A stretch of 64,000 nt of DNA from Acutalibacteraceae bacterium (lineage in GTDB: Bacteria; Bacteroidota; Bacteroidia; Bacteroidales; Paludibacteraceae), in the NCBI GenBank assembly GCA_963659365.1, contig CAVKTI010000004.1, positions 9,776-73,775 on the forward strand, written 5' to 3'. A program made the position numbers and the translations under genes. Positions 20,246 through 64,000 of this stretch are shown here, piece by piece. The notes below the pieces were generated by a model, which did no database searches, was not told where the DNA came from, and saw nothing but the letters and a program-made list of their open reading frames with translations. Position 1 is the first letter of the stretch. Every line of letters begins with the position of its first letter.

Positions 20246-20393
20246 GATTAAATGAAATTAAAAAGTGAATAAATAAAAAATTGGTTGTTGTTTTATCTTT
20301 CCGTCGTGCTGGATTTGTAATCCTGCACTCACTGTATTATAGGGGTTTGTAATTTGTTTGTCGAAAAATTATAAAACAATCAGCGCAGATACA

Positions 20394-22043: not shown

Positions 22044-22056
22044 AATATGACAAGTT

Positions 22057-22896: not shown

Positions 22897-22918
22897 AAAA
22901 CTGTGTGTTAGAGTGTTA

Positions 22919-23740: not shown

Positions 23741-23771
23741 ACTTCAAAAAATATATTTTCATGGTTGTGTT

Positions 23772-24560: not shown

Positions 24561-24589
24561 AAATTCAGTTTTTAACTAATCAAACAACA

Positions 24590-26719: not shown

Positions 26720-26732
26720 GGTTGCTGCCTAT

Positions 26733-27650: not shown

Positions 27651-27663
27651 ATTTCTGTGTAAT

Positions 27664-28557
27664 TTATCTACGAATAGTTATCATTTTTGGTACTACCTGC
27701 ACATTGGTATCGTTACGCCGCAGTTTGCTCTGCCATTGATTAAATGCTTCGAACGAGATAGAGCCATTAGGTGTGGCAGGTTTCGAAAATGGCTCGGTAG
27801 AAAAGACAAAATAGAGATAGTTGGCTTCGTACTCCGAACGGCAAGTCATCACATATTCGTCCACTATATTTCTATCCTCGCCTTTAGGGTCATTGTAGAA
27901 AAAGAGGTACTGCTTGTCTTTCAAAATTTTGTACGAGCCGCTGTTTTGTGCTTGGTAAGGCAGCATACAAACCACATTCTGCTCCGCATCCAACAAAAAG
28001 ATAGCGAGATAGCCCTCCAATGGTGCTGCAAACGAGCAATAGAGGTCGTCGCCCGCACGAAAATCGCTCGATTCTTTGTTGGCATCTACGCCATTGCGCA
28101 AAGTGTGAATATCAAGTGCAATTCTGCTATTTTTTATTTCACGCGCACGGCCACACACATGCGCATGAATAAGGGTTTCGCCTGTATGCTCGTCCATGTA
28201 GAAGCGGAATGTAGGCTCTTCTGTGTCGCCCAACCATTCGCCACGCACAACAGTGTTGCCCAAAGATTGGAAAAAGGTGTCGCTTTCGCCGTTGCGGTCG
28301 CTGATATACATGGTATTAGTTTGCGAGACAAGTGTACCATATACCGCAGATAACGCCTCTATGCGCGCACGCTCGGCTGCAATGTGTTTAGCCTCATCGC
28401 GGCTTACATTTTCTGATACCACATAGGTGTAGTCGCCACAGATCGTTTTGATGGGCGGGGCAGCATACATCGATACACTGAAAAGCAACAGACACCCACA
28501 TACCCACTCAATGAGTATGTGCCGCGACCTCAGATTTTTACTCCTTTTAGCCATCAA
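27664..28557 (-). CDS. DUF4384-like domain protein with an N-terminal anchor/signal
   Basis: 297 aa with a hydrophobic N-terminus. The segment FRAGDDLYCSFAAPLEGYLAIFLLDAEQNVVCMLPY resembles DUF4384, a domain often linked to caspase-domain proteins. Confidence 0.6.
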   Translation of the reverse strand: MMAKRSKNLRSRHILIEWVCGCLLLFSVSMYAAPPIKTICGDYTYVVSENVSRDEAKHIAAERARIEALSAVYGTLVSQTNTMYISDRNGESDTFFQSLGNTVVRGEWLGDTEEPTFRFYMDEHTGETLIHAHVCGRAREIKNSRIALDIHTLRNGVDANKESSDFRAGDDLYCSFAAPLEGYLAIFLLDAEQNVVCMLPYQAQNSGSYKILKDKQYLFFYNDPKGEDRNIVDEYVMTCRSEYEANYLYFVFSTEPFSKPATPNGSISFEAFNQWQSKLRRNDTNVQVVPKMITIRR

Positions 28558-28636
28558 TCTTATTTATTTGTCCCATATAAATAGGGTATCATGTGTTTGG
28601 CAATGGGGCGTTTATCCCCATCACCAAACACAGATG

Positions 28637-29311
28637 TTAGAAACCAAGAACTTGGTCTAGTTGATCGTGCAGGTCGAGTCCCTTGTCCTCAAGGTCTTGA
28701 CGGATAACGCGTTTGGCTGCCTCATGCGCCATCTTTTGGTTGTAGGCAAGGCGGACAAGCACTTCTTTGTTCTTGTTGGACTTGGTGCGATACACTTCCA
28801 TCACAGGTAGCACACGCCCGAGGCTCTGCGAGATAAGGTTCTTGCTGGCACTCACGCTCTCCACAATAGACGCAGCATCATCGGCTGCAAGTTGGCGATT
28901 AGCCACCGTATTCTCTACGAGGGCAGTAACCTCCGTCTGTATCTGACCAGCGAGGTTCTGTTTGGCAAGTTCAAGGGCTTGCATCTTGGCCGCATCGTAA
29001 CTCTCTCCAATACTCATAGCCTCCGCCATGATATAGAGCGGGTAGCCGCTTTCGTCGTACTCGTACTGCATGGTGTAAGACTTCTCCAATTGTTTCTCGA
29101 GCGGCAGTGCGCCAGGTGAAACTTGCCAACCTTCTTTCTTGAGTTTCTTGGCTTCCTTCTTGGTGGCGCGGCTGACTTTGGCATTGAGTTCTTTCTTGCT
29201 TTGTTTCACAACCTCTTTGCGCTCCTTGTTTAACTCTTTCTGCGACTGCGCAGACATGGTGCTTGGCACTGCCATTGTGAGCACCAATGCAAATAACATG
29301 ATTTTGTTCAT
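28637..29311 (-). CDS. Secreted LPP20-like / hypothetical protein
   Basis: 224 aa with a signal peptide (PSTMSAQS), a Lys-rich helix and an LPP20-like core (IMAEAMSIGESYDAAKMQALELAKQNLAGQI). The family call is tentative. Confidence 0.6.
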   Translation of the reverse strand: MNKIMLFALVLTMAVPSTMSAQSQKELNKERKEVVKQSKKELNAKVSRATKKEAKKLKKEGWQVSPGALPLEKQLEKSYTMQYEYDESGYPLYIMAEAMSIGESYDAAKMQALELAKQNLAGQIQTEVTALVENTVANRQLAADDAASIVESVSASKNLISQSLGRVLPVMEVYRTKSNKNKEVLVRLAYNQKMAHEAAKRVIRQDLEDKGLDLHDQLDQVLGF

Positions 29312-43719: not shown

Positions 43720-43742
43720 TCTTTTCAGACCGATAACCAAAC

Positions 43743-43777
43743 AAGAATCCCCGAACTTTCAGGGATTCTTTTGTTGT
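43743..43777 (+). terminator. Rho-independent terminator of hppA
   Basis: AAGAATCCC-cgaactttca-GGGATTCTT followed by TTGTTGTG. Confidence 0.7.
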
Positions 43778-43852
43778 GCTATTTTGTGGCTTGAATTATT
43801 TTTGATTTATAGGTCATTTTTTTCGTGAAATTCTGTTTCCCTCACTTTTTTA

Positions 43853-43885
43853 GGGGGGGGCCTCGCGCGCGCGCATAATGCGCGT
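43853..43885. other. G8 homopolymer, alternating (CG)5 tract and 13-bp palindrome
   Basis: gggggggg (43853-43860), cgcgcgcgcgc (43864-43874), and GCGCAT-A-ATGCGC (43871-43883). It sits at the left edge of the AT-richer island. Confidence 0.8.
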
Positions 43886-43923
43886 TTTTTATATATTGTA
43901 CGCGCACGCGATCCGAGTTTTTC

Positions 43924-43931
43924 TAAATTTG
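43924..43931 (+). promoter_or_regulatory. Candidate -7 box (TAAATTTG)
   Basis: Matches TAnnTTTG and sits 70 nt upstream of the ATG at 44001. Confidence 0.35.
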
Positions 43932-44000
43932 TACTCGAACAAAAAAATTTTTCTCAAATCCTTAAAAACCTTGCGGTGTATAGGCAACCGATCATCGATT

Positions 44001-44195
44001 ATGGAAAGAAATAGTTTGAAACTGCGATTTGTGTTCGAGCGTGAAACAAAAAATCACCTTCGATTTTATGAACAGGTGTTGGATCGTTGGGGAGTACCGA
44101 CAATCGCCAACATCTATGTGAATAAACATGCCATAAGGACACTTGGCTATCGCGAAGGCGATGCGCTGGAAGTAACCATTGCTGCCGTCAAATAG
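44001..44195 (+). CDS. Small hypothetical protein (64 aa) homologous to the C-terminus of the 806-aa protein
   Basis: The sequence is MERNSLKLRFVFERETKNHLRFYE...IYVNKHAIRTLGY. By eye it is about 40% identical to residues encoded at 47297-47485. The start is taken at the internal ATG of ORF 43878. Confidence 0.6.
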   Translation: MERNSLKLRFVFERETKNHLRFYEQVLDRWGVPTIANIYVNKHAIRTLGYREGDALEVTIAAVK

Positions 44196-44263
44196 CATGG
44201 CAGCGAATTTGGTATAAACAAATTGAATTTATAATGAAAAATCAAAACAAAAATTTTACAATC

Positions 44264-44884
44264 ATGAAAAAAATTCTTATTTTAGCAGTCTGTGTAGTAG
44301 TGTGTTGTGGTTCGATTGTGGCTCAAAAACGCCCTTGCTACGCAATTGCCAAGGGCAAGGTGCCTGCGGCTGGTTCAACGCTATGCATCGTTGCATTAGA
44401 TGGGGATTCACTATTGTCGCCAGAACGCCCACCACAAACAATGGAATTGTGTGATTTTGTCGCTATGGTTGTTGGCGCATGCAAGTCTAAAGGTTATAAG
44501 ATAACGCGAGATATTACTCAAGCCAACTCTATAATCATCATTCAGCATGGAGTTGATAAAGATGCTGATGGGGAGTTTTTTAACTTTATACAGCTGTCGG
44601 CGTATACGAGTGGCGGAGGTGCCAATTTGGAAAATATGGCAGATTATGTGTTGTTTTGCGCTACATGGCGTGTCGAAGAACAATCTTCCATGTATATTCG
44701 ACCCTTCTATAGTGTTTTCGATAGATTGTTACTGGGTGCTGCTATAGAAAAAGGCTTTTTCTTTACCAAGCCCAAAAAAATGCAGTGGAATGCTGAAGGC
44801 ATGTTTATGGGAGTGAGCGACAAAACTATGAGGCGTCTAAGGAGGTATCAGAATAAGTTTGGTTTTCTGTGGTACTATAAATGA
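44264..44884 (+). CDS. Hypothetical secreted protein
   Basis: 206 aa counted from MKKILILAVCVVVCCGSIVAQ (signal peptide). An alternative ATG lies at 44234. No family recognised. The gene is AT-richer than the flanks. Confidence 0.6.
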   Translation: MKKILILAVCVVVCCGSIVAQKRPCYAIAKGKVPAAGSTLCIVALDGDSLLSPERPPQTMELCDFVAMVVGACKSKGYKITRDITQANSIIIIQHGVDKDADGEFFNFIQLSAYTSGGGANLENMADYVLFCATWRVEEQSSMYIRPFYSVFDRLLLGAAIEKGFFFTKPKKMQWNAEGMFMGVSDKTMRRLRRYQNKFGFLWYYK

Positions 44885-45064
44885 AATACAGTTGGTAAAA
44901 GAATCCGTTATGAAAAAAAAGTATCAGAAAAAATATCGCTCGTTCTGTTATGAATAGTGAAAAAGAGTAAAAACTCAAGACAACTTCGGAGGAATCTCTT
45001 TCGGAGTTGTCTTGAACTCTTTCCTCAAAAATTATTGATAACCATTTGAAAATCAGAGAGAATT

Positions 45065-47485
45065 ATGGAATTGATAGACAGAGTAAAAAAAATTCTTGTA
45101 ACGGCAGGTGTGTTGTCTAAAAGAGACGCAGGAAACACAACGCCTCGCTTGTCAAGCGTTGCAGACACAGGAATGGGTGATGCAGAATTTATATCAACAA
45201 CGACCTATAATCATGGTTGTAGTAAGACAGAGAAGCAAAGAAACAGTAAACAAAACTTTCTCTTTCTCGTACCTTCTACTGCCGAGCAAGAACAACAACA
45301 ACCAACCTCTGAACAAGCACAAGAGCCAACTGCCGAGCAAGAGCAACCTGCGCCCGAACAAACGCAGCAGCCTACTACCGAGCAGACTGCCACCGAACAA
45401 ACAGCAGAACAACCTACTGCCGAGCAACAGCAGCAAACGGAGCAGAAACAGGAGCAGCCCACGCCAATAGGTGCAGAGCAGAAAAACAACGAGGCGGTAT
45501 TTCAGCCCAAAACGAAAAAGGTTATTTTCCGCTACAAGACCCAAGACGGTCGGTCGTTGTCGCTACCGCTGACATCAGAGGGCGGCTTCTATGTGCGCCC
45601 CGATGGAACGGTCGATTGGGAACGCACACGCTTTGAACACCCAGTGTATTGGAAACCAATGGGCAAAGCCAAGTTGTTCGCTCCTTTCTATCACGACCAT
45701 CTCGACCAAATGCTCGAAGCCGACTGTGTTACAGTGGCACGCCACAACGCCGACCTGCGTGCCGAGCAGCGGCGTGCCGAGCAGGAAGCCGCCGCAAAGG
45801 CACAGGCAGAGGCGCAAGCCAAGCAGCAGCAACAAGCCATAGCCGAACAGCAAGCGGCACAGCAGCCACGCTACCCAACGAAAAAGGACGGCACGCCCGA
45901 CTTTGATAAGATGACCCCACAGCAGGAGTACGACTATCAAGTAGAAACTAACGGTGAAGAGTCGGCACAAAAGGTTGCGCAAGCCTATGTCAATCGCTAC
46001 CAATCGGCTGTTGATAATATACAGGCGCAACTCGATAGCGGCAAAGGCACGAATAGCGTATCGGCTATGCAAGCCAAACTGAACGAAAACAAGGAGCGGC
46101 TCGAGGCGTGGCGTGCGTTTGTGAAAGAGCAGCAGCAAGAAACGCAGCCGCAAGCCGAACAGACGCAGCAAACCGAACAGACGCAACAAGCCCCACAAGC
46201 AAGACAACAACAAGAGCAACCGCAACAGCAAACTGAACAGACGCAGCAAACCGAACAGCAAGACGAGGAGGTAGGGTTAAGCGATGAAGACCTTTGGCAT
46301 AAGATGGAGGAGCAGGCTCAAATCGTTACTGCGCCTGTTTCGTTTGGCGATGAAAAATCGCTTGCTAAACGAAACGCCGCTATGCAGGAGTATTTTCGGC
46401 TGCAAGAACTCTATTGGAACCGATTGGAAAACCAAAAGCAGCGCAGAGCAGAACAAAAATCTGCACCGCAAGCAGAGCCTGTGCAACAGCCGCAACCTAC
46501 GCCAGCAGCGCAAGTAGAGCCTACTCCAGCCCCTGCGCCACAAGCCGATCCGAAAGCGATGAGCGAACGGTTCAAAAATCCGAGAGCACTGTTTTATGCA
46601 TCGATGATGCGAAAATTGCGTAACGCTATACAGTGTGCCGATACAAGCACAAAACGCCAACAACTCGAAACAACACTCAAATGCAGAATGAAATGGTGGA
46701 CCTCTTCGATTTACAACTCGATATGCGACCCAACACTCAGTGCTGAATATGCTTCCGTATTCAAAACATTGGAAACGGGAGAACTCACCGACGCAGAGCG
46801 ACAATCGACAGAGATGCGTGCCGCAAATTTGAGAATGCTGCACCAACAAGAACAGGGCGAAATGTATAGATACGCCATGAACCTATTGCGCAAAGCCAAA
46901 GAGTTTTCCGAATTGGAACGCTTGGTAGCCGAAACCGTGATTGATACGGTAGAGAATCTCCGAAAAAAAAGATTGGAAATGCTTGTTATGCCGCGATTAC
47001 AAAAGATCAAGGGCGTAAGCGATATAACCATCAATAGCGGCATCAGTGTCCGTCCGAGCGTACAAGGAGAACTGATGGAACTGATTCATGTGGTAGAGGC
47101 CACCGTAACCTCCGATGCCCAAGCAGATTTTCTTTATGCCATAGAAACGGCGGCAGATCTCATAACTCCAGACCGTTTTTCTATCTATGCTGACGAGTTA
47201 ATAGCAAAAACGCACGACAACAGAGAAACATGGAGAAAAGTAAGGTTCGATCCGCAATTTACCGAACTGCGATATGGCATGGACGATGGAGTAACGGTGC
47301 GCTTCATGTTCGAGCGAGAAACCAAAAACACCCTGCGTTTCAAAGAATTAGTCGACGACGAGTTTGATATCCCGAAAATGAACACCATCTATGTGAATAA
47401 ATCGCTGTTGAAAAAAATCGGCTACAGCCCACTCGATACGCTCTACATAACGCTACAACACAACGGTGATTTCACCGCAAAATAG
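45065..47485 (+). CDS. Large Q/E/T-rich hypothetical protein with coiled-coil-like regions
   Basis: 806-aa ORF. Low-complexity TEQ/AEQ tracts lie at 45278-45466 and 46128-46272, and an Ala/Gln/Glu helix (AEQRRAEQEAAAKAQAEAQAKQQQQ) is present. The C-terminal module is shared with the 64-aa ORF. No signal peptide, and the start is uncertain. Confidence 0.65.
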   Translation: MELIDRVKKILVTAGVLSKRDAGNTTPRLSSVADTGMGDAEFISTTTYNHGCSKTEKQRNSKQNFLFLVPSTAEQEQQQPTSEQAQEPTAEQEQPAPEQTQQPTTEQTATEQTAEQPTAEQQQQTEQKQEQPTPIGAEQKNNEAVFQPKTKKVIFRYKTQDGRSLSLPLTSEGGFYVRPDGTVDWERTRFEHPVYWKPMGKAKLFAPFYHDHLDQMLEADCVTVARHNADLRAEQRRAEQEAAAKAQAEAQAKQQQQAIAEQQAAQQPRYPTKKDGTPDFDKMTPQQEYDYQVETNGEESAQKVAQAYVNRYQSAVDNIQAQLDSGKGTNSVSAMQAKLNENKERLEAWRAFVKEQQQETQPQAEQTQQTEQTQQAPQARQQQEQPQQQTEQTQQTEQQDEEVGLSDEDLWHKMEEQAQIVTAPVSFGDEKSLAKRNAAMQEYFRLQELYWNRLENQKQRRAEQKSAPQAEPVQQPQPTPAAQVEPTPAPAPQADPKAMSERFKNPRALFYASMMRKLRNAIQCADTSTKRQQLETTLKCRMKWWTSSIYNSICDPTLSAEYASVFKTLETGELTDAERQSTEMRAANLRMLHQQEQGEMYRYAMNLLRKAKEFSELERLVAETVIDTVENLRKKRLEMLVMPRLQKIKGVSDITINSGISVRPSVQGELMELIHVVEATVTSDAQADFLYAIETAADLITPDRFSIYADELIAKTHDNRETWRKVRFDPQFTELRYGMDDGVTVRFMFERETKNTLRFKELVDDEFDIPKMNTIYVNKSLLKKIGYSPLDTLYITLQHNGDFTAK

Positions 47486-47850
47486 GCTTTCGTTACCGCT
47501 TAATTCATAATTCTAAATTCTACATTGGCATTAACCCCCTCCGCTTCGCTCGTCCCCCTATCTTTTCGCTACGCTCCAAGCAGGGGGACAGGTTCGCACC
47601 CAACATTTTCTCGTTTTCTCCCCCTGCTGCGCAGCAGATAGGGGGAGTACCCACGCAAGTGGGGGTAGGGGTTTGGTTTAATTAAGAGTTAAGAATTTAG
47701 AATTATGAATTATCCGCGTTCCCAACCGCCTTAATTATTCAATTTTCGTCGGACGCACGCGGTGCGTCCCTACAATTTGAAATCTGAAATTTGAAATTTG
47801 AAATTGCGGCTCTGCCGCACCACCTCTCACCTCTTCATTTTTTTACACTT
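47486..47850. repeat. Composite intergenic repeat cluster
   Basis: Contains the TIR-bounded GC core at 47502-47711, the hairpin GGACGCACgcgGTGCGTCCctac, reverse (TTGAAAT)n followed by GCGGCtctGCCGC, and tttacactttttcacat. Confidence 0.9.
47502..47711 (-). repeat. MITE-like copy of the three-hairpin GC core with perfect 18-bp terminal inverted repeats
   Basis: The left end is aattcataattctaaatt (47502-47519) and the right end is aatttagaattatgaatt (47694-47711), its exact reverse complement. The interior has three GC stems homologous to those in copies at 161-296, 1388-1518, 6118-6258 and 35351-35526. Confidence 0.75.
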
Positions 47851-47900
47851 TTTCACATAAAAAAATGCGCATAGCGTTTGTTTGTTTCACAAAATAGTTG

Positions 47901-47908
47901 TAATTTTG
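47901..47908 (+). promoter_or_regulatory. Candidate -7 box (TAATTTTG) for the giant gene
   Basis: Matches TAnnTTTG and sits 30 nt upstream of the ATG at 47938. Confidence 0.45.
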
Positions 47909-47937
47909 CATTGTGGTATATTCCGCAGAGTAGATAC

Positions 47938-50900
47938 ATGAGAAACGCACCGCTATACACCCTATTCATATATGCACGCAAACGCTTGCTTGCGCTGGCC
48001 GTGGCGCTGTGTGTGGCTGTAGGCGCATGGGCGGAAGTGGACAAATGGGATACAAAGGTTGTGTCTTGGAGCAATGGTTCGGGAACGGTGGGTGATCCAT
48101 ATCTGATAGAAAGCGCCCAAAATTTGGCCTATTTGGCGGAGAGTGTAAATGCGGGAACCACTTATAGAGGTCAATATTTTAAATTGACAACGGATATTGA
48201 TTGTGATGGCAACCCTTGGATTCCGATAGGGAATAGTGCGACCAACAGTTTTCGGGGAACATTTGACGGTGATAATCATTCCATATATGATGTAAAAATA
48301 TCTTCTGGTACTTATTTGGGCTTATTTGGCAATACCAATGGTGCAACTATTAAAAACGTATATGTTGAAGCGGTGATTGCGTTGATTGCGTCATCGTCAA
48401 CGGTATCGCCGTATGCTGGCGGCTTGGTGGCTTATGCCAATAATACGATTGTAGAAAACTGCCATACCATGGGGGATTTGTCGGTGAGGGTAACGACGCC
48501 ATCGAATGGTATGCGTGTTTATGTGGGTGGTATGATAGGCTATGCTGTTAGCTGTAATGTGTCGTATTCGCATAACTATGCTCGTGTATTTTCACTTGAC
48601 CAAATAGTGGCTATTACCAATTCCAGTAATACTGGATATACCTATGCTGGTGGTATTGCTGCGTATGCTCAAAACTCTACTTTCACTTATGTGAGCAATA
48701 GCGGCAAAATCCAATCGGTGTCGTTTACGCATGCGTTGAGTAAATCTAAAAAGACGAGTTATTTTTCGTATGCATACGCAGGTGGCATTGTGGGCGCAGG
48801 CTATGCTACATTGTCATCGAACCAAAATACATTTAATCAATGTTATAACAAGGGGAATGTACAGACTATTGCTCGTGCTGATAATTTGGATTATCCTAAA
48901 TACGCTTGGACGTATGGTGGTGGCATTTGTGGTTGGGGCGGTACAACCAACAACTGTTATAATATGGGGCAGGTGAAGTCTTTGTCCATTTGGAGTCAAT
49001 CATACTATAACAATTACAGCATTCCTGCCTGTGCGGCGGGTATGGGATGGGGTGTAAAGGCCACCAACTGTTATAATGCAGGTACATTGATTGTGCGTTG
49101 TCCGACGACAATGAAAGGTTACGATAATGGAACCAATGGTAATTGTACTTGTTGCGCAAATACTACTGAAGAAGACGAAGTGCTCGGACACGACGATGAC
49201 TATTATAATGGAGAAACATATACTACTGAGTGGCGAACATACGCTTCAGCCGTTACTTACCCTATAAGTGGTGGTTTTGGTGTTGATAATAACAACCAAA
49301 ATGACATTTCGTCGGCAACCAATTGTTATTACTTGGAAGGTTGTTGTACTCCGTCTAACACTAAAGGCACTGGTCGTGGAGCCACTACACTGCAGAATGC
49401 CGCTATGCCTGGCACACTAAATGGTTCGGTGTTCATTCAAGACACGGAGAACATCAACAAGTATTATCCCATTTTTGGAACATATAAACCTTACGCCACG
49501 ACACTTGACTACATATCGGTGGATTCTACAAATGCCCTGTTGAATGGCGCATATAAATATGTCAATTCAGCGGACTCCGTAGGTTACGAGTTGCGTATGG
49601 ATGGCGAAAAGGAATGGAATACATACCGTTTGTCGTTGAATGGCAATCCGGGCAGTTTGCCTGAAAAGGTAACGGGTTTGATTCGCGATAAGCAATACAC
49701 CTATCGTATTTGGTTGGACGAGGGCGGTATGCGCCACTATGGCGATACATTAAAATTCCACACCACTTGTCCGCCGAACAATCCTGAGTTTCGTGATACC
49801 ATTTGCATGGGTTCCACATATAACCTGCATGGGTTCAATGTAACGCCCATTTCCGCTGGTACAACTACGCATGTGCATAACCTGCAAACCATTTGGGGGT
49901 GCGATTCTATCGTAACGCTTTACCTAACGGCGATGCCTCAATACGAGATAGAGATAAGCCAAGAAATTCGCGACAAGCAGAGCCCCTACATTTACCCGAT
50001 GCCAGCAGGCTACCGTTGGGAGCCGATTCCCGAAGAGTCCCGCACCTTTACCACATCGGGCGTGAAAACGCTGAATTTGAAAACAGTAAATGGTTGTGAC
50101 TCTATCGTCAAACTCGATTTGACCATCACGCCTACTTACGATATTCTTGTAACGCAGAACAGTGCCTTGTGGGGCGATGTGTCGGTGAATAAGCCCTATT
50201 TCACTGCTGGGGAGCAGGCCACAATCATTGCCACTGCCAAACCATACTACCACTTTAAGCAGTGGGAGAAAGATGGTCAAATAGTGGCCACCACCGCCAC
50301 ACACACCATCTATGTTACAGCCAGCGGCACTTACACCGCCATTTTTGAGCCCGACGAGTTCAAGGTAACTACGGGTGTGAACGATGGCAACATGGGACGA
50401 ATAGACCCAGCAGGCGAAAACAGCATGGCGTACAACAGCGACACGATGATAGTGGCCACTGCATACACAGGCTACGACTTTTTGGGCTGGAGCGATGGCT
50501 ACCAAGGCGGCGAAAGACGCAAATACAGAGTAGAACCGCGCGACACTACTATCACAGCCCTCTTTGCTATACACAATTACAATGTAACTACGAGCGTGAA
50601 CGATGACAACATGGGTAGCGTTACCGAGGGCGGCCGCAAGCCCTATAAATCGGACTTCGTGATAACTGCCACGCCAGCAGAAGGTTACGAGTTTGCAGGG
50701 TGGAGCAATGGTGTGAGCAAAGCCACCAATCCATACACATACACAGTGGAATCGCGCGACACAGCCATCATGGCGCGCTTCGTGGCGAAAAAGTTTTTGG
50801 TAACGACCGCCGTCGAAAAAATTGGTGATGTTACGCCGGGTGATGTTACGCCGGGCGGCTACATAGCCTACAACAGCGATACACTGATAGTGGCCACGCC

Positions 50901-53900
50901 ACGCAAAGGCTATCAGTTCAAGGAGTGGAAAGATGGCTTCGGCTCGAACTCCAGTCGCCTCTATAAGGTGCTGCCCACCGATACGACACTCACGGCCGTG
51001 TTCGAGCCTGTGGAGGTGAGCATCAACACAACAACGGTGGGCAACGGTTCGGTGGGCGGTGCTGGCACCTATCACTATGGCGACAATGTAACCCTCACTA
51101 CCACTGCGCCCACAGGCTACACATTCCAGCAGTGGCAAAACGGCAACCGCACCACGCCGCTGAACATTAAAATCAACTGGGTGGGCGACTCTACTTTCAC
51201 TGCCACATTTGTGCCAGTGCAGTGCGAGGTGAATATCGTTCCCGACGACTACAACCACGGCTCGGTAACGCCAAGTTCGGGCAGTTACGCCTATGGCACA
51301 GGACTCGATTTGGAAGCCAAAGAGAACGACTGCTGCTACGACTGGTCAGGGTGGACCGACACAAAGGGCGGCAGTTACGCCAATCGCAACTATCACATTA
51401 CGGTAAACAATCTTGATGGCCCAATCACCTACACCGCCAACTTCAAACCGAAATCGTTTACCGTAACCACTGCTGTGAAGGACGGCAACACTACGCTCGG
51501 CACAGTCGATGCTACCAAAACATACCTCTACGGCGACACCGCAATTGTAAAGGCCTATCCGAGCAGAGGCTATCGCTTCAAGCGGTGGAATGGCAGCGAC
51601 AGCGACTACGAGAATCCGCGCAAGTTCGAGGTTACCCAAGCGATTACGCTCACTGCCGAATTCGAGCCGATAGATGTGACGCTCACCACCAAAGCCACCA
51701 ACGGTACGGTAACGCCAAGCACAGGCAGCCACAAGTTTGGTGCCGCGATAAGCGTAACGGCATCGCCCGCCACAGGTTACAAATTTGTTGGTTGGGAGAA
51801 TGGCGAGACGCGCCAAAACTTCACCTTTAATATAGGTGCAAACGACACCACGCTCGAAGTGGTGTTTGTGAAAGACAACTTCGACCTCACCGTGCGTGTG
51901 CAGGACGACAACAGCGACTATGGCACGGTGTCGCCAGCGGGGACAAATTCGTATGCTTACGAAACGCTTGTGCCAGTTTCGGTAACGCCAAACGACGGGT
52001 TCAAATTTCTGCGTTGGCAAGAGAATGGCAAGACAGCGACCAGTTTCGACTACACGATGGGCGCAGCGGCGCAGACCTTCACCGCACTGTTCGACACACT
52101 GAGTTACCGCATTGTGGTGCAGCCCGAAAGCACAAGCAAAGGCAGCACCTCGCCAGCGAGTGGCGACCACAAATACCGCACAGAATTTAAGATAAAGGCC
52201 GAGCCGGCAACAGGTTACGAGTTCGACCACTGGAGCAACCCTGCCTACACCGATGCCGAATTTGTTTACACCACGCCAGCGAAAACGGAAACGCTGATTG
52301 CCTATTTCCGCCCGATACAATATCATGTAACCACAACCTGCAACGACAAGCACGGCACGGTAACGCCGCCAAGCGGCAACTACGATTTTGCTTCGTTGCT
52401 TTCGATACAAGCCGATGCGCGGCCCGGCTACAAATTCCTGCGCTGGGAAAACGGTAGCACTACCAATCCGCTGACTTACAAGGTGGAAGCCAAAACCGAC
52501 ACCGTGTTCGAGGCTCTGTTCACACCGCTGAACTACAAGATAACCCTCACGCGCAACGACGAGGACATGGGTACAGTGGCTGGCGGCGGCACATTCCCAT
52601 TCGATACGGAGGTTACCATCACCGCGCGTCCAAATTCGGGCTACAAGTTTGTGCGCTGGAGCGACGGCACGAGCGATGCCGATTCGGTGCGTAGGTTCGA
52701 GATAAATGTGCCGAGCGACACCACCATTCAAGCCATCTTTGCAAAAGCAAGTTTCAACATCACCACCGAGGTGAATGTGGCGGGGCGTGGCACAATAGCC
52801 CTAACCCCAAGCGGCGGCAAGTACCTCTATGGCGACGATGTGGAGATAAGCGCAACGCCTAACACTGGTTACAAGTTTACGGGTTTCACCTCTACTGGCT
52901 GGACAGGCACCGAACCCGACAATCCGTACACATACAATGTGAAGGCGCAGAACATCACGGTTACCGCCAACTTTGTTCCGCTGCAATACACCGTTTCCGC
53001 CACAGTGAACGATAAAGCCATGGGCGAGGTGTCGCCAACGAGCCGCACATGCGACTTTATGGGCAGTGTCGATTTCACGGTAACACCAAAAACTGGCTAC
53101 TCGTTCGTAAACTGGGACGACCTGAACAGCAGCGAACTCACGCGCACATACACGCTCGAAACGGCTGGCAATGTTGCACTCAAAGCCAACTTTGCACCGA
53201 ATACCTATCACATCACAGTAGAGTCGGCCGACGAAGACCAAGGCACAGTTACTGGCACAGGCGACGTGGTTTATAACACGGAAGTTACCATTACCGCCAC
53301 GCCAAAAGAGGGCTACAAATTCTTAAAGTGGCAAGACGGCGATAAAAAAGCGGAGCGCACTATCAACAACTACCGCGGCACCACGCCCGACTCGGTGTTC
53401 ATCGCCTACTTTACGCCGAACGGCTACAATGTGAACGCCGAAAAGACCGCAGGCAAAGGCACGGTTTCGCCAACAAAACAGAGCGGCACTTACAAAGGGT
53501 CGGTAACGGTAACCGCTACGCCAGCAAGAGGCTACCAAGTGCAGTCGTGGAATGGCGATGCGTCTGAAACCGAATTGACCTACACCTATAATATAGATGA
53601 ACCGCGCGACACGGTGGTGCGTGTGGCCTTCGCACCGATTGAAGTGCCTGTTTATGCCATCTCGGCCAACGATGATTGGGGAACTGCTGCCGTTATAGGC
53701 GGCAACGACCACAAATTCGACGAAGAGGTCGAAATCGTAGCGACGGCCAAAAATGGTTACGAGTTTGTGGGCTGGGAAAATGTTTCGGGCGGTGCAAGCA
53801 AAAAATTCACTATCAGCAGCACAAAAGACACCACATTTACCGCCGTCTTCAAACGGAAGAGTTACCATGTAACCACGCAACCAGACCATTGGCAGCATGG

Positions 53901-56900
53901 GTCGGTTACGCCAGCCACTGGAAATTATGTGGTCGACACCATATTATATATAACCGCTGCGCCGAAAACAGGTTACGATTTTGCTGGTTGGCAGTATCAG
54001 CCAAGCGAAACTGGCACGACTATTCAGTACAAAGTGCTTCCGCTCGACCACGACACCACATTCCAAGCCAACTTCGAGCCGAAAGAGTTTACCGTTTCGA
54101 CGGCTGTTGGCGAAGGGCTTGGCACTGTTTCGGCTGGCGGCAAGGTAAAATTTGGCAGTTCCATCACCGTTACTGCTACGCCCGAAACTGGTAAGTCGTT
54201 CAGAGAGTGGCGGCTGGGCAACAAAGTGGTGTCGAGCGAGGCAACATTTACCTACACACTCGACACAGCGAACAATATAACGCTCACGGCCTGCTTTGCC
54301 GATCAAGTTTATCGCATATATGCCTATGCTGCCGATGGCAACGGCACAGTGAGTGGCAGCGGCAACTACGAGTACGATACAAAGATACCGCTCGAAGCCA
54401 AAGCCAACTGGGGCTACGAGTTCGACAAGTGGACCGATGGCGCAACAGATGGTTACTACCGCATATACACGGTTACAGGCGAGGCCAACATCTCTGCCAC
54501 ATTCAAAAAGAAGAAATTCAAAGTAACCGTTCGTTCCGAAAGCACGAGCAAAGGCGAGCCAACGCAAATACTCACTAACGCAGAATACGAGTACCAATCG
54601 ACCATCGCCTTGGGCGTTACGCCAGCGTCGGGTTACGAGTGGAGTCATTGGGCCGACAAGAGCGGCAACAAACTGAATGTAACGGAGAACTTTACGCTCG
54701 ATGTGCGGAGCGATACCATAGTAACCGCCTACTTCAAACCAAAAACATTCCATGTAATCACCACAAGCAACGATGAGAACATGGGTACTGTAACGCCAGC
54801 CACAGGCGATTACGAATTTGGCACACCGCTGACTGCGAAACCCATTGCCAAGTTGGGTTACAAATTCCTCTATTGGAACGACGACCCGACGCTGACCGAA
54901 CAAACATTCACCTACCCAGTGGCGGCGGTGGACAACTACACCATCAAGGCGGTGTTTGGCAAGGAAAGTTACGGCGTGAAACCGCAAAACGATGGGCACG
55001 GCACAACTACGCCATCGGTTTATACCAAGTACGAGTACCAATCGACGGTGAAAATCTATGCCACGCCAGCCGAAGGCTACACCTTCGACCATTGGAACAC
55101 GGAAGAGACTACCGACACCGTATATTATTTTGTAGAGCCGCGCGACAGCACCTACAAAGCCTACTTCCGCCCACTGACTTACACGATAACCACAAAAGTG
55201 GACGACAAAGATCGCGGCGAAGTGACGAAATTCACTGAAAAACAGACTTTCGACACCGATGTTACTATTACCGCCACGCCGAAAGAGGGCTATGTGTTCG
55301 ACCACTGGAACGACGACACATCGCTCGATGAACCTTCGTTCACTTACAATGTGGCGGCAAGAGATACAGTTATTGTGGCGCATTTCCGTCCCGATAAGTT
55401 TACGGTGAAGACAGTTGGTAAAGATGGTCTTGGCACAGTTTCGGGCGCAGGCACTTATGACTTTGGCACAACCATTTCGATGCAAGCCGATGGCATTGCT
55501 GGCTACGAGTTCTCCTATTGGGAAGACCGCGCCACATCGGACAACCCGCGCGAATACAAAGTGTTGGCTCATCGTCCCGACACCACATTCACCGCTGTGT
55601 TTGCTCCGATAAATTACAAAATTTCTGTGGCGGTGATCGACACTTGCAATGGGCGCGGCTCGGTTAGTGGCACTGCTACCAAGGCATTTGGCTCTACAGT
55701 AACGGTTACAGCCACGCCGAAAGATGGCTACCACTTTGTGAAATGGCACGATGGCGATACCGACAATCCGCGTGAGTATAGGATTGAAGATGCGTGCGAC
55801 ACCACACTGCGTGCCATATTCATGCCCGAGGAGTACACCATCTCTGTAGCTACCGAATCGAGCGTAAAAGGCACGGTGAGTGGCGGCGGCAAAGCCCTCT
55901 ATGGTCGCACCACGCCCGAGGTGAAAGTAACCGCCACGCCAGAAGAGGGCTATCTGTTCGACCACTGGAGCGACGGCAGCAAAGATAGAGAACACACCGT
56001 TACGCCATACAAATGGCTGAAAGATACTACCCTGACGGCCTACTTCACAACCGCTTCATATCAGGTTTTCGCGCAGGTGAAAGGCACTGGCGGTAGTGTA
56101 GAGCCACTTGTGCAGCAGTGCAACTATTTAGGTAGTGTGCAGATAACCGCCACATCATCGCGTGGCTACCGTGTGAAGGCGTGGAACGGCACCGAATCGA
56201 CCGCCGAAAGTTATAAGCACACGCTGCTGTTGCCCCAAGACGAGACTGTATGGGTAGAGTTCGAGCCGATAGATGTGTATGTTTATGCCGAGTTCGACAA
56301 AAACATGGGCGCAACAACCGTAACGCTCGAAGGCGAAACCACGGCGCACAACGACTATAAGTTTGGCGACAGAGTTACCATCACCGCCACACCGAAGTCG
56401 GGGTATAAATTCGACTATTGGGCGGACGAATTTGGCACAAAACTTTCGGGCGGTGCAGAAAAATCGTTCAAAATTACCAGCATAGACGACGACACCATAT
56501 TTACCGCTGTATTCTCGGCCGAAACATATCGTGTAAACATCACCTCGAACAACGGCACATACGGCACTATCGAGCCAGAATCGAAAGACTATGCGTTTGG
56601 CGATAAAATCAACATTGTGGCAGAAGCCAAAACTGGTTACGAAATTGTGGGCTGGGAGAAACAGCCAAGCCGTGGCACACAAGACAGATTTACCTACACC
56701 GTGGAGGCTGTCGATGACACCCTATTCCAAGTAAACTTTGCGCCGCGCAAGTTCGAAATAACCACCACTACCGATGGTCTTGGCACAGTAACGGCAGGCG
56801 GCGAAAAAGAGTACAACACCACATTCAAGATAGAACCCACGCCTAACGCTGGTTACAAGTTCAAGTATTGGGAGATAACCGTTGGCGGCAGCATCAGCAC

Positions 56901-59900
56901 CAGCACCGACAATCCGCTCTACTACCAAGTTCCAGCCAACAACGCCACCGTCAAAGCCTACTTCGAGCAGCGCGACTACACGGTAACTGTAACGCCCAAT
57001 AGCACCGACATGGGCAGCGTAACAGGCAGCGGCAAATACACCTACGGCAATACCGCTCTGGTAACCGCCACGGCGAAAGCGGGTTACCAATTCTCGCACT
57101 GGAGCGATGGCGATGGGTCGGGGACAACGCGCAGTTGGACGGTGAAAAACGACACGACCTTCCAAGCCGTGTTTGTAGAAAACGAGTACGAACTCACCAT
57201 TCAGTCGAGCGACAAGAACAAAGGCTCTGTCGATCCAGAACTTCTTAACGATCCGCGCAAATATAAGGAGTCGATTTCGTTCAAGGCTGTACCTGCAACT
57301 GGCTACCAACTGGAGCGTTGGAGCGACGGCAACACCGAGGTCAATCGCTCGCACACGATGGAGGCAAAGAGTGCTTCGTACACCGCCTACTTTGTAGCGA
57401 AACGATACCCTGTAACCATAACGACGAACTACGACTATATGGGTAGCACCACGCCAGCATCGGGCGAATACCCATACGACACCACGCTCACTATCAAAGC
57501 CACGGCCAATCCAGGCTACAAGTTCGTAGGCTGGGAAGATGGCGAAACCAGCAGCCAACGCGACTACAAGGTAACAGATGTGGCCAAAACATTCCGTGCG
57601 CTGTTCGAAAAAGATAGTTACACACTCTACACCGTGGCCAAAGATGGTCTTGGCACAGTAACGCCTGCCACTGGTTTGAAACACGAATATCAGACGCGGG
57701 TGGAGATTACAGCCACGCCAAATGCTGGCTACCACTTTGTGCGTTGGCAAAATGGTGAAACGGCCAATCCTACTTTCTACGATGTGTTGGCGAAAGATTC
57801 GACCTACACCGCCTATTTCGAGCCGAATCTCTACAAGATAAGCACCCAAGTCGCTTGTAGCAGCAGTAGCAGTAGCGATTGTGGCACTGTAACCGCATTC
57901 GACGAGGATCAGCCCTACGGTTCAAAGGTAAAAATTACTGCCACGGCAAAAGAGGGCTATGTGTTCGACCACTGGAACGACGATGCGACGCAGACCAAGA
58001 ACCCCATCGAATACACAGTGCAGATAAAGGACGACACCACCTTTGTGGCGCACTTCCGTCCGCTGCAATACTACATCACCATCGAGGCACGCACAGGCGG
58101 CACGGTAACGCCAGCATCGGGCTACTACGATTACGGCACGCCGCTTACAATCAAGGCATCGCCCAGCGATGGCTATACTTGGAACAAGTGGACCGACGGC
58201 GAAGAGCAGTTCGAACGCCGTTACACCGTTGAGGCGCACTCGATGACCTTCACCGCCTCCTTTACACCGATAAAATACACGGTAGCGGGCGCAGTAGTGG
58301 CTGGTCAAACCGACCGCGGCAGCGTAAATCCAGACTTCCAGCGAGCCGACTTTGGTACAACTGTTACTGTAAACGCCATGCCAGAAACAGGCTATGCGTT
58401 CGATGTTTGGCACGATGGTTGGGACAGAAATCCGTATGTTTACAAGATAGAAACAGCGAAAGACACCGTGCTGCGTGCCAAGTTCAAACCGTTGCAGTAC
58501 AAGGTAACGACAGGCGTCGCTTCGGGCGTGGGCAAGGTAGAAACAACGCCAACCACAACCAACGGCAAATACGATTTCAACTCCACAGTTGTACTCGAAG
58601 CCAAGCCCGAGGCAGGCTACAAATTTGTCGGCTGGAGCAATGGCGAAGGTGAAAATGTGAATCCATACACATACATCGTAGATGCGCGCGACACCACTAT
58701 CAAAGCGAACTTCGAGCCGATAGGCTACACCATAACGGCAGCGGTGAACGACGGTCTTATGGGCGAGGTTACGCCACGCGACACCGTGGTTAAATACAAA
58801 CAGTCGGCCAACTTGGTGGCAAAAGCCAACGACGGCTACCACTTTGTAGAGTGGGACGACACGAAGAGCACCAACCCGAAGCGCACCTACTGGGTGGACA
58901 CGCCGAGCGACATTACACTGCGTGCCATCTTTGCGGCAAACGAATACCAACTCACCGCCAGACCTGAATGGTCCTCGCAAGGCACGGTTACTGGCGGCGG
59001 CACGGTAACATTCAACCAAGATGTAACCGTAGCGGTAACTGCCAACGAGGGTTACACATTCTCGCACTGGAGCGACAACACCAGCCAAACGCCATACACC
59101 TACAAATATACCACCGTTGGCAATTCGGAGATAATCGCCTACTTTACCGCCAATCAGTACAACATCACAACCAAAGTGTTGGGTGGCAAAGGCTCAATTT
59201 CGCCCGATCAGGCGCAAGGCACTTATGGCGAAAGCACCAAATTCACAGCCGTACCTGCGCGTGGTTATCAGGTGAAAGAATGGAGCAATGGTTCCAGCGA
59301 GATAGAAAACAACTTCCGACTCAATATGCCGCGCGACACCATTGTTACTATCGAGTTCGAGCCGATTACCATCAATGTCAATGTGTCGGAGAACTACGAC
59401 TACATGGGCAGCGCATCGGTTAAGGGCGGCAACGAACACAAGTTCGATTCGGCGGTAACCATCATCGCCACGCCAACGACGGGCTACAAGTTGCTGCGCT
59501 GGATGGACAATAACGGTACGCAGGTTGGCACGACTTTAGAAAAGACCTTCACCATCAATAGCGTACGCGACACCACATTCCAAGCCATTTTTGCGCCGAT
59601 TTCGTGCAGCGTTATCACTGGTTCGGGAGGCAATGGCACAGTAACGCCGCCGTCGAAGTCGTATCCCTACGACACCACATTCATGGTGCAAGCCACGCCA
59701 AACGAAGGCTACCAGTTCGACCGCTGGCGCGACCAGCCGTCGGTTACAGACGATTACATCAACTACACCGTCAAAAATCTGGACGGTGACACCACCTTCT
59801 TCGCCTACTTCAAGCCGAAGCAGTACTACATGGCGGCTGTGGCCAATGGCGGTCTTGGCACGATAACGATGACCGATGCCAACGGCATTGTAGGCGACGG

Positions 59901-62900
59901 CATGAAAGACTACAAATCGACCGTATCTCTTTCGGTAGTGCCAACTGCTGGCTACAAAGTAACGGAATGGCGCAACGCAGCAGGTGCAGTGGTGGCTGGT
60001 GCTGTTACCTCGTTCACCTACCAAGTGCCGCTCGATGGAACTACACTGACTGCCTATTTTAGCAAAGAGACCTACCACATTACCGTTACAACAGACAATC
60101 CGTCGGCTGCCGAAAGTTTTACAGGCGAGGGCGACTACGAATATGGTGCGACACCTACCGTTTCGGTTACTGCCAAGCATGGCTGGATATTTAAGCAGTG
60201 GGATTACGATGCCACGAAAACGCAAACACACCAATACACGGTGAAAGGCTCTGCCATTATCAAAGCCATATTCGAGAAAGATAAATTCCGTGTAACAGGA
60301 ACGAGCAACAGTTACACCATGGGCGATGTTTCGCCACGCGACTTGAGTTACGAATATCAATCGACAGCGACACTGACGGCTATTCCTGTGCTTGGCTATC
60401 GGTTTGTAGAGTGGCAAGATGCGAATGGGAATAGCCTTGGCAACAAAAACCCATACGAATACTATGTCGAAGATGCTGCTTCGTTCAAAGCCATATTTGC
60501 AGAGGAGAATTATCTGGTGAATACAGGTGTGAACGATGCCTCACTTGGTTCGGTAACGCCAACGTCTAATTCGTACCCATTCAATAAGATTATAAGTGTC
60601 AAGGCCGAAGCGAGATCGAAAGGCTACGAGTTTAAGTATTGGATGAACCAAGACAGCGTGAAGAATGGCACCGACAACCCGCGCAGTTACACCGTGCGTG
60701 CGGTGAAAGATACCACGTTCATCGCCTACTTTGGCCCAGCCAACTTCAAAGTGGAGGTTGCCTCGGACGACTATAGCATGGGTAGTGCAACCATTTTGCC
60801 AGCCTCGGCCGACAAACGCTATCCCTATTTGAGCAAAGTTACCGTTACGGCTAAACCAAGCGAAGGCTACAAGTTTGTCCGTTGGAGCGACAATAGCACC
60901 GATGCTACACACGACTACTATGTCGATGCGGCCGATGTGGTTCTCACCGCCTACTTCGAGAAAGATAATTTCCAAGTGCGCACCGCTGTGAACGACATCT
61001 ACATGGGCGTTGTCAATCCGTCGGGTACTAATCTCTATTCGTTCCAAGATACGCTGCTGCTTACCCCAACACCTATCGACTCTGGCTACAAGTTTGCGCG
61101 CTGGAGCGACGACAATAGGCAAAATCCGCGTAAGTACATAGTGCAAGCCAAGGCAGACACGCTGTTTACGGCCATTTTCGAAAAGCGTAAATTTAGTGTA
61201 GAAGGTCTATCGGACGACGGTTCTATGGGTTCGGTTACCCTAACGCCCGAAGGCGATGGCAGCGGCGAATACGAATATCTGAGTAGTGTAGTGCTGCGCG
61301 CTGTGCCAGAACCAGGCTACGAGTTCGACGAACGCTGGAAAGGCAGCAACACCAAAAAGGATTTTGTCGAATACATAGTGCAGGCAAAAGACACCTCGTT
61401 CACGGCGTTCTTCCGCCCAAAAGACTACAAAGTAACCATCGCAACCAACGACGACAAGATGGGTTATGTAGAGCCAGGTAACAACTATTACACATTTGGC
61501 ACGAATCAAGATTTTGTAGCGACATGCAACTCTGGCTATCAGTTCTCGCATTGGGAGAATAATCATGGTGTGCGTGTAGGGTCCAATGCCAAACTCACAT
61601 GGAATGTGAAATCGCAAGATACCATACTCATTGCCGTATTCAAACCCGATAAGTACACAGTCAAAACCGTCAGCGCACAGCCCAACTGGGGTTCTACATC
61701 GCCTTCAATTAAGCAGTACGACTATTTGGATTTGGCTACAATCAAAGCCGTGCCAAAGCATGGTTACTACTTTGTAGGTTGGGACGACGGTGGCAATGGC
61801 AGCACCGATACCGTGCGCGAAGTGAGTGTAGAGGCCAACATTACCTACACTGCCAAATTTGCTCGCGAGAGTTACACCGTTACCACAGGCACTAACAACG
61901 GCTTGTGGGGCAGCATGACACCAGCGACGGATTCGTATCTCTACGACAGCATCATTACGCTGGTGGCCAAGCCTGTGCATAGCGGCTATGTGTTCGACCA
62001 TTGGAGCGATGGCGATGGCAGTCGCGAAAACCGCATTTTCAAAGTAACAGACGACACCACCATCACAGCCATATTTGCCAAGAATAAATTCTGGGTGAAT
62101 GTAAGTTCCGAAAACGCCAGCAAAGGCACGATAGAACTGCCCAATCCAGCCAGCGCACAGTACGAATACTACACCCCAGTGAAATTCAAGGCAGTGCCAG
62201 AGTCTGGTTACGAGTTCGACTATTGGAGCGACGATCCTAATCAAAAGAGTGCCGAGCGCACCTACATTGTCGATACTGCCAATGTGAACATTGTGGCGCA
62301 CTTCAAGAAGGCTCAATTCAGAGTGTATGGCAAATCAGACGACAGTTCGATCGGAAAAGTCGTTCCGCAAGTGGGCTACTACGCATTCGATAGCACTATT
62401 CATTTGGTGGCTCAACCTGCCACAGGCTACAAAATTGACCATTGGGAGAACAAACATGGCGTTCGTGTGGCGGCCGCAATCGATAGTTTGGAATATACCG
62501 TTGAAGCCGTAAAGGATACCACATTCTTTGCCTTCTTTGTGAAAGACAAATACATGGTGCGTGTGCGCACAAACGATGCTAATTATGGTACGGTAACGCC
62601 GAAAACTGATCAGCAATACGAGTACCAAAGCACGGTAACGATGAAGGCGATGCCAAACAAAGGTTATCAGTTTGTGCAATGGAAAGATGGGCACAAGGGC
62701 GACAGCATACGCACCTACATAGTAGAGGCCAAGGACGATACCACTTTCACCGCTATATTCGAGCCGATTATCTACACGCTTACCGCTTCGGCCTACGAGG
62801 GCAAAGGCACGCTCTCGCCCTCGAGCGGTTCGGTGGCATACGATTCTGCCGTTTGGGTAACGGCTACGCCTAACGATGGTTATACATTCGACCATTGGCA

Positions 62901-64000: not shown

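Follow-up and report, generated by a model that had tools for sequence, protein, structure and literature searches.

A giant gene of a Paludibacteraceae-like bacterium encodes a long array of Flg_new_2 repeats behind a predicted GLUG-type beta-helix head and is probably a fibrillar surface adhesin

We describe here the 5' part of a giant gene that occupies the last 16 kb of a 64,000-nucleotide stretch of chromosomal DNA (contig CAVKTI010000004.1 of assembly GCA_963659365.1, positions 9,776 to 73,775 of the forward strand; this whole stretch is hereafter called the window). The window belongs to a metagenome-assembled genome (MAG) of a Paludibacteraceae-like member of the Bacteroidales. The gene is a real, intact coding gene in the 5,354 codons seen, and we are highly confident that its product is a secreted or surface repeat protein. 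This agrees with a sequence-only reading of the same DNA, which had proposed a giant secreted or surface protein built of Listeria-Bacteroides (InlB B-type) repeats; a signal peptide and 58 stretches matching the Pfam family PF18998 bear it out. With less assurance, we consider it probable that the protein is a fibrillar adhesin, with a head at the tip, a stalk of repeats and a C-terminal anchor that would probably be a type IX secretion system (T9SS) sorting domain. The giant protein is an extreme, unusually long member of a widespread and experimentally unstudied kind, and represents no new system or mechanism. The features of the gene are listed below (aa, amino acid residues of the translation; AF2, AlphaFold2; pLDDT, predicted local distance difference test score).

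47877..47908, plus strand: putative Bacteroidetes-type promoter (TTTG, 20 nt, TAATTTTG), ending 30 nt before the ATG
47938..64000, plus strand: 5' portion of the giant gene, stop-free over 5,354 codons and cut at the window end
47938..48036, plus strand: predicted type I signal peptide, aa 1-33 (MRNAPLYTLFIYARKRLLALAVALCVAVGAWA / EVDKWD, with an A-x-A cleavage site)
48043..49482, plus strand: predicted GLUG-type right-handed beta-helix head, aa ~36-515 (from homologues, profile, AF2 and Foldseek)
49489..49767, plus strand: predicted FN3-like beta-sandwich domain, aa ~518-610 (AF2 pLDDT 76-93)
49771..50160, plus strand: two short Cys-containing modules, aa ~612-741, each ending G-C-D-S-I-V-x-L-x-L-T
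50161..63882, plus strand: 62 complete Flg_new_2 units, aa 742-5315, of 68-83 aa each (mean 73.8)
52342..58527, plus strand: possible trace of an old duplication of a block of ~12 units, in units 11-38 (units 11-26 resemble units 23-38)
63883..64000, plus strand: opening 39 aa of unit 63, which the window end truncates (matching profile positions 2-38 at E = 1.2e-6)

The ATG at 47938 is the first start codon after the nearest in-frame upstream stop (47872). Translation of this frame (+1) as far as base 63999 gave 5,354 codons with 0 stops, exactly as the sequence-only reading had stated. Over the same 16 kb, 258 and 151 stops were counted in the other two sense frames and 287 and 286 in two antisense frames; with 0 stops against 151-287 in these four frames, a frame that is open by chance is excluded. 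Additionally, the synonymous codon use of the giant gene correlated well with that of five housekeeping genes of the window (r = 0.87). The gap that the supplied list of open reading frames (ORFs) shows at this position had been put down to the lack of an in-window stop, and this explanation holds, because the mechanical list omits ORFs that run off the source. The gene was also said to extend past the window, and its frame is indeed still open at the window edge. A chain of antisense ORFs of up to 683 aa lies opposite the gene (49924-63978, minus strand), and we rejected these long ORFs as genes. The giant gene makes little use of the sense codons TTA, CTA and TCA (6 + 8 + 16 = 30 in 5,354 codons), which is why the antisense frame read codon for codon against it has as few as 30 stops.

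The consensus of Bacteroides promoters, for the -33 and -7 elements, is TTTG-N19-21-TAnnTTTG. This pattern was matched six times in the window, compared with 1.29 matches expected, and 0 of 100 shuffled sequences reached six; most of the matches sit just upstream of genes or of a tRNA. One match is the candidate promoter upstream of the ATG of the giant gene. The gene is probably expressed.

For the counting of repeat units we used a hidden Markov model (HMM) built from the giant protein's own units. The model detected 62 complete units and a partial 63rd, which accounts for the 63 units at a period of ~74 aa reported earlier, and the array starts at aa 742, in keeping with the ~730-aa head that had been described in front of it. 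The Pfam model PF18998 (Flg_new_2, divergent InlB B-repeat) recognized 27 + 31 = 58 stretches in the two halves of the ORF, the scores being 737.9 and 912.3 bits (cut-off, 23.6), and per-kilobase scans agreed. PF09479 (Flg_new) also exceeded its cut-off of 27 (74.3 and 120.6 bits) but with only 0-1 individually significant stretches per half, and TIGR02543 reached, on a single 1,000-aa piece, 37.3 bits (cut-off, 20.95). On these profile scores, the units are best placed in Flg_new_2, the sister family of Flg_new. The assignment to Flg_new/TIGR02543 made in the sequence-only reading therefore stands for the superfamily, since the cut-offs of both models were passed, whereas for the family PF18998 is clearly the stronger model.

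The consensus of the units is G-x-V-x-P....Y-x-Y.......A-T-P-x-x-G-Y-x-F-x-x-W-x-D.........Y-x-V....D-T-T-x-x-A-x-F-x-P-x-x-Y-x-V. The Trp and the Phe are invariant in 62 of 62 units and G, G, Y and A are kept in at least 90%; only about six positions are conserved per unit. The signature G-Y-x-F-x-x-W, earlier attributed to each unit, was slightly overstated, as its strict form occurs in 44 of the 62 units and a relaxed form in 57, although its Trp is present in all. Similarly, the D-T-T and A-x-F parts of the downstream motif NPR...DT...A.F belong to the consensus, but NPR is found in eight units only.

The unit profile was aligned (positions 5-64 of 73) with nearly the whole domain of the InlB B-repeat 2y5p_A (E = 0.016). 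The AF2 model of units 57-59, for which other unit triplets served as the alignment, was all-beta with a pLDDT of 92.3. A Foldseek search with this three-unit model returned elongated multidomain surface proteins, among them strings of complement CCP domains, YwfG, pilins and residues 36-392 of InlB. The B-repeat of Listeria monocytogenes InlB (2Y5P; Flg_new/TIGR02543) resembles the units in being a domain of ~70 aa with the motifs G-Y-x-F-x-G-W and L-x-A-x-F, and it is all-beta, as the units are predicted to be. InlB, however, has a single B-repeat between its LRR/IR region and its GW domains, whereas the giant protein has 62+ of them in tandem, and the giant protein also differs from the Listeria protein in its Gram-negative host and presumably in its anchoring.

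Pairwise identity between the units ranges from 11% to 49% and averages 29%, and the longest exact DNA repeat in the gene measures 35 nt, compared with 13-14 nt in codon-shuffled controls. The low identity of the units and the shortness of the longest exact repeat make assembly collapse or recent amplification very unlikely, as had been argued before from the divergence of the units. The low identity fits an old array that has kept only its fold-determining residues. Such divergence also fits the pattern expected of a long multidomain protein that avoids misfolding between neighbouring domains.

Within the array, the best partner of many units in the range 11-44 lies at a distance of 12, 14 or 26 units, and units 13-18 are similar to units 39-44 as well. 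At lag 12, identity is raised in a run that spans units 11-26, and 83 of 2,000 permutations reached the observed clustering. This is modest evidence that the array may hold the remnant of an old duplication of a block of ~12 units. The two copies of the 35-nt repeat (AAAGAGGGCTATGTGTTCGACCACTGGAACGACGA) lie at window positions 55281-55315 and 57948-57982 (gene offsets 7344 and 10011), in units 24 and 36, exactly 12 units apart, and no other long exact repeat occurs in the gene. They may have survived from the block duplication or may mark a short gene-conversion tract. A signal of avoidance between neighbours was considered and discarded, as identity is 0.285 between adjacent units and 0.294 between distant ones (z = -1.3, not significant).

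These data also bear on the possibility that the gene is non-functional, either as an assembly artefact of a repeat region or as a decaying pseudogene that happens to be open in the window. The source is indeed a metagenome-assembled contig, repeat genes are prone to misassembly, and neither an orthologue of the gene nor a fragment of a same-species array was found in the protein searches with head and array or in the scan of JGI metagenomes. The last 60 nt of the window had no exact match in genome_contigs or metagenome_contigs, and when JGI metagenomes were scanned with a degenerate pattern of the last 331 aa, only paralogue-level matches (24-38% identical) came up. At the protein level, neither the last 475 aa nor the last 1,500 aa found anything above 41% identity, these searches listing targets of up to ~1.75x the query length, so that giants are invisible to short queries. 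On the other hand, the open frame is not a product of chance, short reads can place units uniquely when these are 29% identical and share no exact repeat longer than 35 nt, each of the 62 units retains its fold-determining residues, and the codon usage matches that of the genome. We consider a non-functional gene extremely improbable.

The N-terminus of the protein was read by eye as a signal peptide, with a basic n-region, a hydrophobic core and the cleavage site A-W-A in front of the conserved mature N-terminus (aa 1-33), and the earlier claim of a signal peptide is thus retained. In the AF2 model a helix was found at aa 6-27, within this segment, and in the alignment consensus of the head homologues the signal peptide ends just before a conserved WDG motif. 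No canonical lipobox was seen in aa 1-33 on reading the translation.

The 740-aa head had 488 homologues (best E = 6e-73), mostly "GLUG motif-containing" proteins of Bacteroidales and Clostridia, many of them annotated with PF07581 (GLUG). The Bacteroidales homologues often carry the T9SS domain PF18962, the Clostridia homologues often carry Flg_new and Cu_amine_oxidN1, and some homologues bear Peptidase_M26_N (PF05342) or other enzyme-associated domains. The consensus rung of the head family is a repeating I-x-N-C-x-N-x-G...G-G-I-x-G. The head-family profile matched 3n6z_A, a fragment of a "putative IgA1 protease" (E = 3.2e-28), and residues 159-365 of the Streptococcus pneumoniae IgA1 protease (6xja, 6xjb, 7jgj; E ~8e-10). 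The AF2 model of the head shows stacked short strands, with a pLDDT of 74.5 overall and mostly above 90 for aa 40-390, and Foldseek matched it to 6xja_P over 361 columns (E = 5.7e-4). According to profile and model, the head is predicted to be a GLUG-type beta-helix like the non-catalytic N-terminal domain of IgA1 proteases. What had been described simply as a "head" has therefore kept its length and is refined here to a GLUG-type beta-helix followed by an FN3-like domain.

The beta-helix region includes a Cys- and acid-rich insert (aa 391-455) and a C-terminal cap. Cys, Asn, Thr and acidic residues abound in the insert (window 49108-49302; …NGTNGNCTCCANTTEEDEVLGHDDDYYNGE…), for which model confidence is very low and the homologue consensus offers no counterpart. 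For aa ~518-610, the top Foldseek matches were FN3 domains (template modelling score, TM, 0.5-0.78 relative to the target), and positions 456-545 of the head-family profile gave weak matches to FN3 chains. The two Cys-containing modules matched no Pfam family, and AF2 confidence is low for aa 648-740.

As the beta-helix of the S. pneumoniae IgA1 protease (6XJA/7JGJ) and that of Bacteroides 3N6Z match the head of the giant protein in both profile and fold, membership of the IgA1 proteases (peptidase M26) was considered. It was rejected on the 5,354 residues seen, in which no M26 catalytic domain or peptidase family was detected; moreover, the Pfam and NCBIfam scans found no catalytic domain of any kind in them. 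A protein that is mainly a secreted enzyme, for example a protease or a glycan-degrading one, could nevertheless be imagined if its catalytic domain lay in the unseen 3' part, the head and the repeats being targeting modules. The likeness of the head to a non-catalytic domain of IgA1 metalloproteases, the occurrence of PF05342 in some homologues, and the part of the 87,074-bp source contig, up to about 23 kb, that may follow the window would all be in line with such an enzyme. The lack of a catalytic domain in so long a segment counts against it, as does the fact that the catalytic domain of IgA1 protease closely follows the beta-helix and does not come after 60 spacer domains. Moreover, in those relatives read that have T9SS-like tails the repeats, or a short linker, run straight into the tail. 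Some other giants, among them P0165, P0169 and P0221, have further modules after the array, and these are non-catalytic. Altogether, an enzyme appears improbable to us.

For the anchored fibrillar adhesin, which is the reading that we prefer, the following course can be suggested. The protein would be exported by the Sec pathway through its N-terminal signal peptide, would pass the outer membrane and would become covalently attached to the surface through a C-terminal sorting domain located beyond the window, most probably a T9SS C-terminal domain, given the phylum. On the assumption of 3-4 nm for each domain, the 62+ small all-beta domains of the InlB B-type would form a long thin stalk of ~0.2 micrometre or longer. 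The GLUG beta-helix head and the FN3-like domain would be held by this stalk far from the cell, where the head would bind a ligand carried by host material, by food particles or by other cells; a head-outward topology follows if the anchor is C-terminal. An anchored fibre is supported by the existence of shorter relatives that have the same order of head and repeats and a T9SS C-terminal domain. The data themselves show the open frame, the make-up and order of the domains, the divergence of the units, the chromosomal setting and the existence of these relatives. We infer T9SS secretion, C-terminal anchoring, head-outward topology, adhesion and physical length.

Several points weigh against this interpretation. 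The C-terminus lies beyond base 64000, so that the T9SS anchor and route are suggested by relatives, and T9SS component genes are absent among the ORFs of the 64-kb window. The length of the stalk depends on the assumed rise per domain, and expression of the gene is likewise something that we infer. The profile match to 2y5p_A is marginal and the sequence identity between the units and InlB is low, while in the Foldseek ranking other strings of small beta domains precede InlB 36-392, which comes only 23rd (E ~5e-3). As regards the head, the Pfam GLUG model (PF07581) scored 19.3 bits on the protein itself (16.9 in another scan), below the cut-off of 20.5, and we know of no ligand for any GLUG beta-helix.

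It is important to mention that the repeat units, rather than the head, might be the working parts of the protein, forming a multivalent binding array with diverged surfaces, like that of MucBP/Mub proteins, to which the head would be accessory. Each unit would then bind glycans or molecules of the host or of partner cells, and the conservation of only some six positions leaves the surfaces free to vary. In its favour, Ebbes and co-workers reportedly related the InlB B-repeat fold to mucin-binding domains in 2011, and the mannose-binding surface protein YwfG is among the Foldseek matches of the three-unit model. Phage-display fragments that bind dextran or pectin resembled Prevotella proteins with divergent InlB B-repeats, although the fragments themselves had no Pfam match and the repeat is not directly implicated. 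We know of no binding function shown for Flg_new_2 units, which counts against such an array. Furthermore, the conserved residues of the unit are core-forming aromatics and glycines, and the Flg_new_2 repeat sits behind many unrelated heads (LRR_5, GLUG, enzymes), as spacer domains do. We regard a binding array as possible but on the unlikely side.

The unit profile was also compared with 1.84 billion representative proteins. It matched 97,565 of them at E <= 0.001, and 10,651 still matched with the threshold set at E <= 1e-30, so that the Flg_new_2-type repeat is very common. The top-scoring repeat proteins have 1,000-6,800 aa, and HMMER reported up to 61 matched stretches in one of them. When 17 large top-scoring proteins were recounted with the same HMM and thresholds as the giant protein, arrays of 40-56 units were among those found, with a maximum of 56. 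The giant protein, with 62 complete units and still unfinished, has more units than any of the 17. Unit identity across the recounted proteins spans 0.23-0.88, and hence the divergence of its units is not exceptional.

Three of the relatives, P0203, P0101 and P0004, have the same module order as the giant protein, that is, a signal peptide, a head and then the repeat array. P0203 (4,027 aa) has a weak GLUG head and 38 Flg_new_2 units, and P0101 (1,129 aa) has a GLUG head, Flg_new_2 and then PF18962. In P0004, GLUG heads precede a single unit detected by the own-unit HMM (PF18998 in the precomputed annotation), and the tail is T9SS-like by reading only. P0170 (3,569 aa) and P0172 (3,914 aa), with 41-42 units and T9SS-like tails, share the repeat family PF18998 and are similarly diverged, with a mean unit identity of 0.36-0.37, compared with 0.29 in the giant protein. 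The head of the giant protein is only 24-34% identical to those of the Flg_new_2 relatives in Bacteroidales, none of which is an orthologue. The tails of the large arrays fit the lineage: Bacteroidota-like ones are Por_Secre_tail-like or DUF6383, the C-terminus of P0286 has LPKTG and a membrane helix, and P0282 ends in an SLH-like tail. Other proteins of Paludibacteraceae and Bacteroidales have LRR_5 heads on Flg_new_2 stalks. Proteins of this kind are already common in gut Bacteroidales and Clostridia. In the literature searched, no mention of Flg_new_2 by name and no experimental study of the proteins P0203, P0170, P0172 and P0101 was found.

A scan of GTDB genomes with the first 100 aa of the head gave 442 relatives, and none of the best 80 of these had more than 6 such units within 10 kb. 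Closest to the head, at 45% identity over 291 aa, is a sequence from a related Bacteroidales MAG (SFDZ01000015.1, 9908-10819); it is cut by the contig end after 304 aa, which suggests that a similar long gene broke that assembly. Separately, a protein of 909 aa that combines a GLUG-type head with two repeat units is encoded on a contig of an archaeal MAG (Methanocorpusculum sp., goat caecum; locus L022, 8483-11209). This could reflect either a binning error or the sharing of gut adhesin modules between domains of life.

Among well-known giant surface proteins, SprB of Flavobacterium johnsoniae is a repeat-rich gliding adhesin of 6,497 aa that forms surface filaments and is exported by Sec and then by the T9SS. 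The giant protein is like SprB in outline, being a giant repeat-rich surface protein of a Bacteroidota cell for which the T9SS is presumed, but its Flg_new_2 repeats differ from the repeat family of SprB. A gliding adhesin of the SprB type was rejected, as Pfam scans gave only Flg_new_2, Flg_new and weak chance matches. No gliding genes were found near the giant gene in the window, and to our knowledge Paludibacteraceae are not known gliders.

In the periscope proteins and other long-stalk adhesins of Gram-positive bacteria, tandem small domains act as spacers that project a functional domain off the cell (PMC12415215). Periscope proteins have near-identical DNA repeats and change rapidly in length, whereas the units of the giant protein are 29% identical. 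Membership of this group was rejected on the basis of the mean and maximum unit identity (29% and 49%) and of the longest exact DNA repeat (35 nt), and the absence of long identical DNA between units means that the length of the array is probably stable. Giant proteins of 10,000-30,000 aa with Listeria-Bacteroides repeats have been described in gut Clostridia (West-Roberts et al. 2023, bioRxiv 10.1101/2023.11.21.568195). These proteins are likewise from the mammalian gut, belong to the same repeat superfamily and have been proposed to serve in surface binding. They differ in phylum and envelope and carry dockerins and YG repeats, whereas the giant protein has a GLUG head.

The window also contains genes for an H+-pyrophosphatase (H+-PPase), glucose-6-phosphate isomerase (PGI), GpsA, NAD synthase, DprA, RecO, MiaA and a two-component system, as well as a tRNA. 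Exact matches of the neighbouring proteins were found in a 3.6-kb Logan contig and in a 7.4-kb contig of GCA_963630945.1, and SRR13434670 contains an H+-PPase gene identical to that of the window. The PGI falls into a cluster, at 90% or more, with a protein from a "Paludibacteraceae bacterium" MAG. The block GpsA-PGI-PNP-H+-PPase is conserved in close relatives, and in none of these does synteny show a giant gene downstream of H+-PPase. In four related loci (L002-L005), H+-PPase is followed by a helix-turn-helix regulator and then by LRR_5 surface proteins or a trypsin-like protease. Since the segment downstream of H+-PPase differs between close relatives, the giant gene appears to lie in a variable surface-protein locus.

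In the window, H+-PPase is followed by three unannotated ORFs (43720-47937) and then by the giant gene. The ORF directly upstream (45065-47485, plus strand, 806 aa) is of low complexity and very rich in Q, E, A and P; a signal peptide was not apparent by eye, neither Pfam nor NCBIfam gave a match, and its 90% cluster consists of short fragments only. A dispersed intergenic repeat made of 7-nt sub-units (TAATTCATAATTCTAAATTCT) was also observed, with 10 matches at <=3 mismatches compared with 0 expected. Its positions are as follows.

1387, 8355-8382, 12440, 19406-19440, 35507, 47501-47521 and 47692-47712, intergenic: repeat of 7-nt sub-units

The copies at 47501-47521 and 47692-47712 are perfect inverted copies that flank 170 nt of G/C-rich palindromic sequence, and they sit in the gap of 452 nt that immediately precedes the giant gene. 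Neither this gap nor the repeat matched an Rfam family. Elsewhere in the window, a run of same-strand ORFs, mostly without a Pfam match (19550-29311, minus strand), includes a 592-aa protein with a caspase-like Peptidase_C14 domain and CARDB and a 709-aa protein with FN3 domains; this run could be a surface-structure or defence-like cluster.

If the ~23 kb that may lie beyond the window were all part of the gene, the protein could reach roughly 13,000 aa and about 150 units. In that case the gene might be among the longest in Bacteroidota and might encode the longest known InlB-B-type array, whose individual binding surfaces would make the protein a sub-micrometre, multi-specific tether and not an inert stalk. 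We regard this larger picture as speculative and unlikely.

Giant surface fibres decide what gut anaerobes attach to, be it mucus, plant particles or partner cells. Genes for such fibres are systematically lost or broken in short-read assemblies, and also in ORF tracks that omit unfinished ORFs, as happened here. With 62 complete, well-diverged units that short reads can assemble, the giant gene offers a clean, unusually long case for structural or biophysical work on the folding and solubility of very long strings of small domains. If the topology that we favour is correct, the giant protein would show a GLUG beta-helix displayed on the end of such a stalk. In Paludibacteraceae, the giant gene marks what appears to be a variable surface-protein locus beside conserved housekeeping genes.

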